Virus record (IMG/VR): IMGVR_UViG_3300028388_004772
Span: 77,248 to 141,247 of that record
Origin: a virus
Strand: one strand, 5' to 3'
DNA length: 64,000 nt
Position 1 is the first letter of the stretch; each line of letters begins with the position of its first letter. This document shows positions 54,549-58,596 of the stretch, one piece after another. The position numbers and the translations under genes are program-made. The notes beneath the pieces are model-generated. The model ran no database searches. It was not told the DNA's origin and saw only the letters and a list, made by a program, of their open reading frames with translations.

Positions 54549-54795
54549 TCTCTTGCTCTCTTTCCCACATTAAATTCTCCACATGATTAATTACATTGGA
54601 GAATCCCATTTGAAGAGGATGGTATTCTTGGAGCTCTTCATCACGAAACACTTCCAGCTCAGCTAACTGCTCTTCTGTTAGTTCTTCAATTGATTCAATA
54701 CCATAGTATTCTGTGACGTATTCTTCTACAGACTCTGTCATATGGTTTTCAACCCAATCAAGAATCTTATGTGTTCTGTGCCATTCAAAAGCCAT
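54523..54795 (-). CDS. Acidic hypothetical protein
   Basis: Coupled ORF, Glu-rich. Confidence 0.65.
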   Translation of the reverse strand: MAFEWHRTHKILDWVENHMTESVEEYVTEYYGIESIEELTEEQLAELEVFRDEELQEYHPLQMGFSNVINHVENLMWEREQENETDSSDE

Positions 54796-55634
54796 TATCG
54801 ACCTCCTGCTAGTTCATCAATGTACCCGATATTATACATTACTGAGTTCAATTTGTCAATATCGATTGACGTATAATCAAACTCAACTTCTTTCTCAAAC
54901 TTACCGTCAACAAGACCTGTGGGTGAGTTATCAAAACGAATATTGTTCAGACCAGCCCACACAGCTGCAGACGAATCCCATGTAGCAATGTAACGATGCC
55001 ATGGTTCAAGTAGAGAGATTTCATTAGGACCATCAACCATTCCTAAGCAATGAAAGATATCCTCATAGTAGTGATGACTATTGAATTGACCTCGTTGAGT
55101 GAGAATCTCGAGGATACGATAGCGGGACATATAACGCTGAAGCTTATTATCCTTCTCTACACCAAATGCATTCGGACACCCGAGAATGGAAAGACCAATA
55201 CGATCCACATACTTACGACCCTCATCCAAAGCCCATTCCATACAATACAGATAATCTTCGAGATCACCTACTTCAGACTGAGGAACAAAGAATGTTTCAT
55301 ATCCAGCATCGTGATAGATGGGAGCAGTCTCACGAGCTGCGTCGATAGTCTTTGATGAGTGCTCGCCTGGATAGTCAGACATGACAATCATATCTGCCCC
55401 ACAGGCTTCTGCCATAGGAAGGAGATCATCAGTAGAGTACATTGGACGACCCTGCTTGTACATTTCGAAAGCAGAGTTATCCATAATCTTCTGCTTGCCA
55501 TCATCAAGGCTTCTATAGAATTCGCGATAGACAGGATCCTGCTCTACAAGATGAGCGAGGATGAGATGTGCACCATTGGTACGGGTGAAAGCACCGAGAA
55601 ACGAAGTCGGTGCAATATGACAAAAGTTTACCAT
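54795..55634 (-). CDS. dpdA: Divergent DpdA/TGT-like 7-deazaguanine transglycosylase-fold protein
   Basis: IMDNSAFE (TGT DSGGF-like), V..D, FFVPQ, IG.S, HCLG, WDSS..VW; lies in the Que cluster. Confidence 0.65.
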   Translation of the reverse strand: MVNFCHIAPTSFLGAFTRTNGAHLILAHLVEQDPVYREFYRSLDDGKQKIMDNSAFEMYKQGRPMYSTDDLLPMAEACGADMIVMSDYPGEHSSKTIDAARETAPIYHDAGYETFFVPQSEVGDLEDYLYCMEWALDEGRKYVDRIGLSILGCPNAFGVEKDNKLQRYMSRYRILEILTQRGQFNSHHYYEDIFHCLGMVDGPNEISLLEPWHRYIATWDSSAAVWAGLNNIRFDNSPTGLVDGKFEKEVEFDYTSIDIDKLNSVMYNIGYIDELAGGR

Positions 55635-55643
55635 AATATATCC

Positions 55644-55988
55644 TTATTCAAATGTTAGACGGCAACCGTTTTCACCATCCTCCGATACTTCAATAGCAAT
55701 CGTACGTCCGGGATACTTCGCCCGAATGTATACTGCCAACTCACGAGCCATCATCTCACAGCTCTTGTAATCAAGTTGCATTGTGCCACCATCATACAAA
55801 GCTTCCAGCTCACGTTTAAATAAAATAAACTCTACATCACGATCGTCATGCATCACCTCGAGCTCAACTCGGAAGTGAAAGATGTGACGATGAGGATGAC
55901 GTAGAAACTCTACCCCTTCTGGTGCATCTGGATACTTGTGAATACCTTCCTTCTGAAAGGTGACCCAGATAAAATCTTTACTCTGCAT
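55644..55988 (-). CDS. dpdL: T-fold QueD paralog, DpdL-like CDG decarboxylase
   Basis: EGIH.YP...FLRHPHRHIFHF (LxxxHRHxF), RDVEFI, SCEM.A, V.EDGENG. Confidence 0.7.
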   Translation of the reverse strand: MQSKDFIWVTFQKEGIHKYPDAPEGVEFLRHPHRHIFHFRVELEVMHDDRDVEFILFKRELEALYDGGTMQLDYKSCEMMARELAVYIRAKYPGRTIAIEVSEDGENGCRLTFE

Positions 55989-56331
55989 TATATCTTCCAT
56001 TATCAATTGATGACTTAACAGGGTCATAGTCTACATTATATTCAGGTTGAAGTAAACGAATAATTTGACCCTCAATCTCTTCAACTTCTTTTTGTGTTCT
56101 CAAAGCTGGTTTAACCAACCAAATGAACTCGCCAGTTTCATTACGACTATCTTCAACCAATTGTCCTCTAAAATTAGTCCAGCCACTGGATCCATATTTT
56201 TCTTTCCAGTTCCTATGATTCTCGGACAATGTGGTTAGTTTACACATTGAAGATCCGGAATAACGAACTATACTGTCGCGTACAAAACCATAGACACCAC
56301 GATATACTTTATCTGTTGGTTTAACAGCCAT
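55978..56331 (-). CDS. Small GIY-YIG-like nuclease (EndoII/DenA-like architecture)
   Basis: GVY...RYSGSS...HR...E..E...I..LQPEYN. Confidence 0.55.
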   Translation of the reverse strand: MAVKPTDKVYRGVYGFVRDSIVRYSGSSMCKLTTLSENHRNWKEKYGSSGWTNFRGQLVEDSRNETGEFIWLVKPALRTQKEVEEIEGQIIRLLQPEYNVDYDPVKSSIDNGRYNAE

Positions 56332-57238: not shown

Positions 57239-57907
57239 CTAGCCTCGAATATTAGACATTACTTCTTTACGAAGTTCGCTATTGTGTACACCAAACTCTC
57301 CAAGACAACAAGCTGTTACTGTAGAAGATTGAGTGTCCTTGATACCACGTTGTGATACACAAGTATGTCCAGCTTCGATAACAACCATCACGTCCTGCGA
57401 TCCAGTGATGTACGCAATCGCATGAGCAATCTGCTGATTCAGACGTTCCTGTACTTGAGGACGCTGAGCAAAGTATTGAGTGATACGATTCAACTTGGAT
57501 AGGCCTAGGACCTTCTCTCCCGGGATGTAAGCGATGTGAGCTTGTCCAATGATAGGACGTAGATGATGTTCACAATCACTGTAGAGGGTAATGTTCTTTT
57601 CTAGTACAAACTCATCACCATGGCAGAACTTATTTTCTACTGTAGTACATTTAGGGAATGTATCGTAACGTAGACCAGAGAAGATCTCGTCAACGTACAT
57701 CTTAGCAACACGCATCGGTGTCTCTTCTAGTGAGTCATCTGTTAGATCAAGACCAAGTACTTCGAGCATCTCTTTAGTAAGGTCTGCTACTTTACGATGT
57801 TTCTCTTCACGATCTTCTTTAACGAGAGCTGTGATAGGAGTATTGATACCTAGAGTGTCTAGGTACTTATTGACCGCTCGGCCTAGTTCTGGATTGTTCT
57901 TTGCCAT
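57239..57907 (-). CDS. folE: GTP cyclohydrolase I
   Basis: ETP.RVAKM, CEHH, GLSKLNR, RPQVQERL, H.C...RG. Confidence 0.96.
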   Translation of the reverse strand: MAKNNPELGRAVNKYLDTLGINTPITALVKEDREEKHRKVADLTKEMLEVLGLDLTDDSLEETPMRVAKMYVDEIFSGLRYDTFPKCTTVENKFCHGDEFVLEKNITLYSDCEHHLRPIIGQAHIAYIPGEKVLGLSKLNRITQYFAQRPQVQERLNQQIAHAIAYITGSQDVMVVIEAGHTCVSQRGIKDTQSSTVTACCLGEFGVHNSELRKEVMSNIRG

Positions 57908-57911
57908 TTTT

Positions 57912-58001
57912 GATTCCTTCAGGTTGAACTTAACGTGAGTGGAAGGAAGGAGGACTCACTGCACCCGCCAGGGAAAAACGCATTGCACGTGCAACCCCTG
58001 G
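57912..58001 (-). promoter_or_regulatory. Structured folE 5' leader: SD-sequestering pseudoknot (riboswitch candidate)
   Basis: CCAGGG/CCCUGG stem; GUGAGU/ACUCAC stem whose loop CCUCCUUCCUUCC is complementary to the SD GAAGGAA. Confidence 0.55.
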
Positions 58002-58023
58002 AATACTTCGTTGCTTGAGACAA

Positions 58024-58596
58024 TTATTTATACTCTTTCAGCTTTTTAGCTGGACTCTGCCAATCCCATAAAGGCTTCTGAATTAAGTAATTGTCAATAC
58101 ATGCATTCTTCTTACCTTGCTTGAGAGCAACCCTTTCATCTATGGTAATGAAGGCAGAGTTCTTCTCATGCTCTCTACACTCAACGCGAGAGATGTAAGC
58201 TCGTCCATCAGTAATCAAATAGATGAATGGATTGACCTGTTCCCAGATAAAGATAGAGGACATCTCCATTGATACTCCATATGGGAGTACTCGAAGATCA
58301 ACTAGGCCTGATGCATATGCGTGAGTAATATCCTCCATACGAGGATCGTCTGCACCAGCAAGTGCTGTGTGATCAAAGTAATATTCAAGAAAACTTTTTA
58401 CTTTCTTTAGATCCCCAAACCCAACAATCCATCCATGCTCGTCAGCTTCACCAGCAAACTCAAAATGAACAGAACGATCATAACCATGCCACTTAGAGCA
58501 TGGACCTTCACATTCACGTCCAAGTTCATCTGTATCAAACCACTGCATATGAGCAACAGGTAAGTTGTAATAAGATTTAGTACTCTTCAAAATCAT
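58024..58596 (-). CDS. queD: 6-carboxytetrahydropterin synthase
   Basis: AH.Q...C.K.HGY...DE.GWIV.FG.LK...FDH...E...NSA. Confidence 0.85.
   Translation of the reverse strand: MILKSTKSYYNLPVAHMQWFDTDELGRECEGPCSKWHGYDRSVHFEFAGEADEHGWIVGFGDLKKVKSFLEYYFDHTALAGADDPRMEDITHAYASGLVDLRVLPYGVSMEMSSIFIWEQVNPFIYLITDGRAYISRVECREHEKNSAFITIDERVALKQGKKNACIDNYLIQKPLWDWQSPAKKLKEYK

Follow-up and report, generated by a model that had tools for sequence, protein, structure and literature searches.

Results

The queD–folE gap

The stretch of DNA analysed here (hereafter the window; 64,000 nt, positions 77,248 to 141,247 of IMG/VR virus record IMGVR_UViG_3300028388_004772) comes from a marine, T4-like phage with a genome of 141 kb, and carries on its minus strand a row of genes encoding DNA polymerase B, a primase/helicase-like protein, a QueE-like radical-SAM protein, a phosphoribosyltransferase (PRTase), QueD, FolE and a metallophosphoesterase. 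Between the stop codon of queD (58024–58026) and the AUG of folE (57907–57905) lies a gap of 116 nt (57908–58023; all coordinates are window positions on the minus strand), which carries an RNA element of ~110 nt and is the subject of this report. The gene downstream, and the one apparently under its control, is folE (GTP cyclohydrolase I; 57239–57907; Pfam PF01227, E 5e-59). A first-pass annotation of the window had singled out this gap as the only sizeable one in the row, GC-rich and able to fold into a pseudoknot that sequesters the folE Shine–Dalgarno sequence (SD). Its coordinates and sequences agree with ours, no other sizeable gap interrupts the row, and the GC content of 0.49 is a local maximum, compared with 0.36–0.48 in the flanks.

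A conserved, covarying RNA

Searching IMG/VR with FolE as query yielded ~40 contigs with FolE 69–92% identical to that of the window, and the regions upstream of these folE genes contained a plainly conserved element with compensating base changes. An alignment of 24 leaders (A1) was assembled, and a covariance model (R1), built with the nested helices only, was used to gather and align further members, giving 42 distinct versions of the element from uncultured marine phage contigs and metagenomes. Across all 42 distinct leaders, 95.8% of alignment cells were paired, against 79.6% with shuffled partners (97.1% against 78.0% for a set of 28 distinct leaders), and pairing fell to 35–53% of cells when partners were slid by 1–3 columns. 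Compensatory changes, on both sides of the pair, were present in 19–20/28 pairs, and the observed values were reached by 0/500 shuffles. Moreover, all the top pairs of a mutual-information (MI) scan fell inside the proposed helices. Two of these helices, P1 (paired in 98–99% of cells) and P5 (91–95%), had been left out of R1, so that their pairing owes nothing to the model that made the alignment.

Chance structure, that is, a non-functional spacer with fortuitous complementarity, could be argued from the behaviour of the single sequence: its nested minimum-free-energy fold was not above shuffles (z = +0.74; 151/200 shuffles folded equally well). Such folding is, however, uninformative here because the structure is pseudoknotted, and the argument from chance has to contend with 42 homologues, 20 of 28 pairs compensated, none of 500 shuffles matching the data, an excess of cis pairing in helix P3 (below) and a position before folE that is kept despite changes in gene order. 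It is refuted. The conservation and covariation in related phages on which the first-pass annotation had staked its prediction are thus both present, and the queD–folE gap encodes a real, evolutionarily conserved pseudoknotted RNA.

Six helices

The element opens with the 5′ strand of P1, GCAAC (58010–58014), which forms a pseudoknot with GUUGC (57991–57995) inside the loop of P2, directly 3′ of the P2 5′ strand. P1 pairs in 98.5–99.2% of cells, and its variants include ACAAC/GUUGU, CGAAC/GUUCG, GACAA/UUGUC and GGGAAG/CUUCCC. P2 itself joins CCAGGG (57996–58001) to CCCUGG (57968–57973), the latter placed by covariation and consensus and followed by an invariant C (57967); double changes occur in 6/6 pairs and 96–98% of cells are paired. 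This helix had been proposed, as P1, by the first-pass annotation, together with an inner UUGCA/UGCAA pairing. The outer helix is upheld by covariation; the inner pairing leaves a loop of only 2 nt and shows no covariation, and the comparative data replace it with the GUUGC/GCAAC pseudoknot and a small variable hairpin, ACGU/GCGU.

That hairpin, P2a (57978–57990; ACGU-GCAAU-GCGU in the window), shows double changes in 3/4 pairs and is paired in 94–95% of cells. Across relatives its loop is either a GCAAU pentaloop or a GNRA tetraloop (GUAA, GAAA), which suggests a tertiary loop–receptor contact. Between P2a and the P2 3′ strand runs a near-invariant U-tract (57974–57977; UUU at least 97% conserved), which, we infer, may form U·A-U triples with the invariant AA:UU core of P1. 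Two other uses of this region were considered and rejected. P2a and the U-tract do not make an intrinsic terminator, the stem having merely 4–7 bp and a terminator scan calling none, and an 18-codon open reading frame that starts in the P2a loop of the window copy, a would-be leader peptide, is interrupted in relatives.

A third helix, P3, bridges the two halves of the element as a further pseudoknot: GCGGG, on the 3′ side of P2 (57964–57968), pairs with the first five nucleotides of the P4 loop, CCUCC (57949–57953), of which CCU is invariant. The 3′ strand was assigned from consensus and from a cis/trans pairing test, in which 108/130 pairs formed in cis compared with 96.5 ± 2.3 when loops were swapped among sequences, and 0/2000 shuffles reached 108. 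Exchanges of C:G to G:C and of G:C to A:U were seen, and one column pair had an MI of 0.62 (MIp 0.40), although P3 is a shorter helix with weaker support than the other five, and its register is least certain in the window copy. A conserved C·C mismatch in P3 was entertained as a ligand pocket and discarded, as one subgroup has an A-U pair there.

P4, which the first-pass annotation had as its P2 and which covariation likewise bears out, joins GUGAGU (57954–57959) to ACUCAC (57935–57940), with 98.8% of cells paired and double changes in 4–5/6 pairs. In its loop lies UUCCUUC (57942–57948), the anti-SD strand of P5, whose partner is the SD itself, GAAGGAA (57914–57920), 6 nt before the AUG. The perfect 7-bp complementarity of these two strands had been noticed in the window; covariation and duplex energies now support both. 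P5 takes many forms among the leaders (UUCCUUC/GAAGGAA, CCUUUUC/GAAAAGG, CUCCUUU/GAAGGAG, UUCUUUC/GAAAGGA, UCUCUUC/GAAGAGG). Since the start of the P4 loop pairs with the strand after P2 and the remainder with the ribosome-binding site, this is a hairpin loop paired on both sides, which is an unusual trait of the element.

Conserved unpaired nucleotides

The conserved unpaired set comprises the L1 linker, the U-tract, the GC after P2, the CCU that opens the P4 loop and the GUUAAAC linker, and these nucleotides are concentrated in the 5′ domain. L1 (GAAGUAUU; 58002–58009) has the consensus AAGGU.UU. It was tried as an SD-mimic decoy for the anti-SD loop, but the effect is too weak to sustain the idea (−3.43 kcal/mol in cis against −3.09 ± 0.14 in trans; 9/1000 shuffles). 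The linker between P5 and P4, J4/5 (GUUAAGUUCAACCU; 57921–57934; consensus GUUAAAC...), is single-stranded and A-rich, with an invariant AA; a GUU/AAC mini-hairpin that had been suggested for this stretch shows no covariation, and is better described as part of the conserved linker.

At the junction of P4 and P5, a pyrimidine (57941; C in the window) between P5 and the P4 3′ strand covaries with 57921. Among the 42 leaders the combination 57941/57921 was U/C in 24, C/U in 15, U/U in 2 and C/G in 1, and never C/C; it was the top non-Watson–Crick pair of the MI scan, and both states occur within one close subgroup. The swapped pyrimidines could form a non-canonical pair or be part of a pocket. 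Together with the invariant unpaired nucleotides (L1 AAGGU, UUU, GC, GUUAA) and the GNRA-type caps, this exchange suggests something aptamer-like.

Occlusion of the folE ribosome-binding site

The duplex between the P4 loop and the leader had a calculated energy of −5 to −10 kcal/mol, and always fell on an SD situated 4–9 nt before the AUG (0 nt in one outlier). Its mean, −7.8 kcal/mol, is stronger than that of the textbook 16S tail (−6.1 kcal/mol). It is therefore well supported that the conserved fold buries the folE ribosome-binding site in P5, and the central proposal of the first-pass annotation, a pseudoknot sequestering the folE SD, stands on a conserved, covarying leader. Very probably, the leader acts in cis as a structured RNA that, through P5, limits or controls the translation of folE.

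The conserved fold of a riboswitch is normally its ligand-bound state. Here the conserved state would be OFF, because the SD is buried in P5 and the anti-SD loop outbinds the textbook 16S tail. The element also has what riboswitches have in general: it is conserved, structured and placed in the 5′ leader of a metabolic gene, and its expression platform covers the SD. We therefore read it as a translational OFF-riboswitch on folE, to which, as a whole, we assign a probability of roughly 0.48; that it responds to a ligand at all we judge to be close to an even bet.

On this reading, the RNA of the gap would be the 5′ leader of the folE mRNA, folded compactly over ~105 nt with two pseudoknots. 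Its 5′ domain would consist of P1 interlocked with P2, the embedded P2a with its GNRA-like cap and the invariant U-tract, and P3 would connect it to a 3′ domain in which the P4 hairpin presents a pyrimidine-rich loop, the first part to P3 and the rest to the folE SD (P5). With the whole fold formed, the ribosome-binding site would be buried and FolE translation off. A small molecule signalling sufficiency of the 7-deazaguanine pathway would be taken up by the 5′ pseudoknot, and its binding would stabilise P3 and P5, so throttling the GTP-consuming first step. Such a division of labour, with a 5′ sensor and a 3′ expression platform, is suggested because the conserved unpaired nucleotides cluster in the 5′ domain, which is tied to the anti-SD loop via P3.

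A late-promoter box upstream

A T4-type late-promoter-like box, TATAAATA (58025–58032), shares bases with the queD stop codon, 10 nt ahead of P1. The window has 9 copies of TATAAATA where 3.4 are expected, all in the orientation of the local genes, and TAAATA occurs 5–11 nt before P1 in 15/19 related leaders, compared with 1.1% of background 32-nt windows. T4 late transcripts begin a few bases after the late-promoter box. This, with the box 5–11 nt upstream, places the probable start of the RNA at or just before P1, and makes TATAAATA at 58025–58032 a putative promoter. Late promoters of related marine myophages have been called from the same box (PMC9004378). Neither the box just upstream, nor helix P1 (GCAAC/GUUGC), nor the bridging helix P3 had featured in the first-pass annotation.

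Distribution

One copy of the element is present in the window's own 141-kb genome and one in each related genome, and each directly abuts folE (offset 0 after every copy), in keeping with the earlier suggestion of a link to the GTP-committing step. A context-free DNA pattern derived from the 5′ domain picked out 29 metagenome stretches, 25 of which were confirmed by the model, and 25/25 had folE at offset 0; the other four matches were one unrelated sequence and were set aside. The gene upstream of the element is not constant (QueD, PRTase, QueE-like or unknown). Nor is the folE downstream, which can be only 55–58% identical to that of the window (L145, L326), although most of that clade is without the element. 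Of cultured phages, two have a divergent copy directly before folE: Aeromonas phage Ahp1_CNU-2021, at 36.3 bits (E 8e-6), and Vibrio phage D479, at 27.1 bits (E 8.5e-4). Both copies bring new compensatory variants of P1, P2 and P4.

A pattern scan for bacterial homologues, with one genome per species over 185,579 prokaryote species, gave 101 matches, about the number estimated by chance, and 1 true match among the 80 examined. This one (L156; 105.8 bits) is on contig CALBDR010000119.1, of 1,495 bp, from an 'uncultured Candidatus Melainabacteria' metagenome-assembled genome, and is probably phage DNA mis-binned into a bacterial genome.

Other folE leaders of T4-like phages have structures of their own. 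In L295:1351-1512, L297, L298/L299, L406:1200-1329 (Vibrio phage Bakedbeans) and L404:1159-1311 (Acidovorax phage ACP17), a hairpin has a CCUUG- or CCUU-type loop that can pair with a downstream purine run at or beside the SD, over 11 bp in L298 (CUUGACCAUUC/GAAUGGUCAAG); such leaders may be related at a greater distance or have converged. A second type of folE leader (L348, L351, L358, L360) has, ~90 nt before folE, a GATAAATA box, a 9-bp hairpin and an A-rich linker, with the word CACAACGG recurring in the loop and immediately upstream of the SD.

Several observations weigh against a riboswitch. The part that sequesters the SD, P3-P4-P5, looks stable alone (P5 being of 6–7 bp) and has few conserved unpaired nucleotides. 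It is also more widely conserved than the putative 5′ sensor, whereas it is the aptamer that is better conserved in classic riboswitches: L015, L035 and L252 keep P3-P4-P5 and put a plain hairpin where the 5′ pseudoknot would be, and in the looser relatives L295, L297, L298 and Bakedbeans a pseudoknot of the loop–SD type alone is retained. Several close relatives have no element at all, their folE being translationally coupled to queD or placed behind a bare late promoter. T4 phage biology, moreover, offers protein-bound operators as a precedent, and the unremarkable single-sequence fold described above belongs on the same side.

Some of these facts would be natural if the leader sensed nothing and were a ligand-independent translational attenuator, which sets a fixed, low rate of FolE synthesis from a strong late promoter and, as a structured 5′ end, shields the mRNA from 5′-end-dependent decay. 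P5, P4 and P3 would then need no help to form, the 5′ domain could be exchanged for a plain hairpin, the element could be dispensed with in close relatives, and it would be expected to begin, as it does, at the predicted +1 of a late transcript. However, a hairpin over the SD would suffice for this purpose, yet six helices are maintained, as are unpaired nucleotides that do not vary, the GNRA caps and a covarying junction pair of non-canonical type, and the strict restriction to folE, among ~200 genes per genome, points to pathway-specific control. We consider fixed attenuation unlikely, and the accompanying protection of the 5′ end equally so.

Pathway context

Besides FolE, QueD and QueE, the cluster around the element encodes a T-fold protein bearing a DpdL signature; QueC is found nowhere in the genome. 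The T-fold protein (127 aa; 55644–56027) contains LRHPHRHIF, which fits LxxxHRHxF, the signature of DpdL, a proposed decarboxylase of 7-carboxy-7-deazaguanine (CDG) (PMC10516641). The FolE/QueD/QueE/DpdL set goes with DNA containing 2′-deoxy-7-deazaguanine (dDG); in Cellulophaga phage phiST G is fully replaced (PMC10516641). Among 20 element-bearing records, 18 had DpdL and no QueC, and 2 (the contigs of L039 and L038) had QueC and no DpdL. The element thus occurs in phages of both the DpdL type (7-deazaguanine) and the QueC type (preQ0), and any ligand should therefore be common to the two branches.

Nearby, a 279-aa protein (54795–55634), described as TGT/DpdA-like in the first-pass annotation, had no Pfam or PHROG match. 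Homologues 40–50% identical to it, annotated as hypothetical or DUF3310, occur in Aeromonas phage Ahp1, Vibrio phages D479 and Bakedbeans, and Rhizobium phage RHph_I1_18.

Comparison with known RNA families

Rfam 15 (4227 families), searched at E ≤ 10 with a 901-nt region and with 141-nt slices of the window and of L001, gave no match to the element; its only matches, a wrong-strand DUF2693 and a snoRNA, were both noise. The preQ1-III and preQ1-II models alone gave no match in the whole 141-kb genome. That this is a phage-encoded RNA outside Rfam, as the first-pass annotation had supposed, therefore holds for covariance models including preQ1-I, preQ1-II, preQ1-III and THF-II. Full-text searches of the literature turned up no prior description, although a catalogue of >10,000 phage RNA candidates (PMC10690425) may list the motif unnamed; the riboswitches in the Melnitz paper on related myophages are limited to a glutamine riboswitch.

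The resemblance to preQ1-II (RF01054) that had been proposed was not sustained. In both RNAs a hairpin is embedded in a pseudoknot, there are U-rich strands and the SD is fully occluded, but there is no model match at E ≤ 10, and preQ1-II builds the SD helix into its aptamer, whereas the element has a separate hairpin whose loop pairs with the SD. Judged against the published description (PMC11625349, section 7), the layout is closest to that of preQ1-III (RF02680; the queT leader of Faecalibacterium prausnitzii). The two have in common a length of ~100 nt, five pairing regions and two pseudoknots; a 5′ strand that pairs into the junction inside the second helix, beside an embedded hairpin; a separate P4 hairpin whose anti-SD loop forms P5 with the SD of the 3′ tail; U-rich strands beside A-U pairs; and translational control of a 7-deazaguanine-related gene (PMC11625349). 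The helices that make up this two-pseudoknot plan, P1, P2, P2a, P4 and P5, are all supported by covariation in the element. In preQ1-III the SD is gated by ligand-promoted docking (PMC11625349).

This likeness is one of architecture and need not mean homology. The preQ1-III model does not match at E ≤ 10 and its gathering threshold of 63 bits is not reached; preQ1-III belongs to the leader of a transporter gene, queT, in Ruminococcaceae, whereas the element is always before folE, in T4-like phages; and the element has the extra bridging helix P3, between the start of the P4 loop and the strand after P2, and a longer P5 (6–7 bp). Hints of a pocket like that of preQ1-III, where preQ1 sits between P1 and P2 over U·A-U triples, are confined to the U-tract and the AA:UU core of P1, both invariant, and a search of 151 sampled Clostridia genomes found no preQ1-III sequences for comparison. 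The element thus appears to be a new RNA family that works like a switch of the preQ1-III type, outside the preQ1-III class.

Other deazaguanine and folE switches are less close. The 3′ domain shares with preQ1-I type III (RF00522; the E. coli yhhQ leader; PMC10622847) an H-type pseudoknot, in which the pyrimidine-rich loop of a hairpin reaches over an A-containing linker to pair with an SD of the AAGG type. In a preQ1-I riboswitch, a small H-type pseudoknot of ~34 nt, a conserved specificity cytosine immediately precedes the 3′ strand of P1 and the tail is A-rich (PMC10622847, PMC11625349). The element has no match to the model; its loop is of 11–17 nt rather than a tight turn and its P5 of 6–7 bp rather than 3, the position of the specificity C is U in 26/42 and C in 16/42 leaders, and there is no poly-A directly before the SD. 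THF-II, the proteobacterial folE motif (PMC9881143), shares the association with folE and translational control, but is a single hairpin of ~50 nt with internal loops and without pseudoknots; there is no Rfam match, and the folE of the element-bearing phages feeds DNA modification, not folate synthesis.

The translational operators of T4, such as the gene 32 leader pseudoknot and the gene 43 operator, are also structured leaders that control translation initiation in T4-type phages; proteins, among them gp32, gp43 and RegA, bind at them. The element could likewise be an operator at which a phage or host protein, possibly FolE or another pathway enzyme, locks or opens the SD. Autogenous repression through structured leaders, including the pseudoknot of gene 32, is textbook biology for T4-like phages, and the conserved unpaired motifs could be protein contacts. 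Nevertheless, the known T4 operators are simpler and belong to other genes. Moreover, the element has no candidate RNA-binding protein as a specific companion, and it accompanies two FolE clades only 55–58% identical and pathways of both the DpdL and the QueC type. Control by a bound protein seems to us unlikely, but like fixed attenuation with a protective 5′ structure it is a serious competitor of the riboswitch reading.

Discussion

If the translational OFF-riboswitch reading is right, what would the element sense? Since the phages are without QueF, preQ1 itself is an unlikely ligand. A base of the 7-deazaguanine family is a candidate that we put forward tentatively and think rather unlikely; the best guesses are CDG, the last common intermediate, or the 7-deazaguanine core shared by 7-deazaguanine (DG) and preQ0. 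A new riboswitch class confined to T4-like phages, sensing a metabolite common to the DpdL and QueC branches and shutting off FolE translation, is possible, if on balance doubtful; its pocket would not be homologous to those of the three preQ1 classes, and its layout would have converged on that of preQ1-III, for which the element would provide a test case of convergent evolution.

Even without a ligand, the element gives Rfam a new, well-defined RNA family, and its divergent versions in two cultured phages make bench work possible at once. To our knowledge, riboswitches are rare in viruses, and we know of none for the control of DNA hypermodification; the element, if it is a switch, would be the first known case of an RNA sensor in charge of DNA hypermodification in a virus, and a new deazapurine aptamer useful as a biosensor part. 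From their gene set (PMC10516641), these phages are predicted to swap much or all of their DNA guanine for 7-deazaguanine, which would heavily drain the GTP of small marine hosts. A sensor acting on the first committed enzyme would reveal the way in which a virus keeps this drain in balance.

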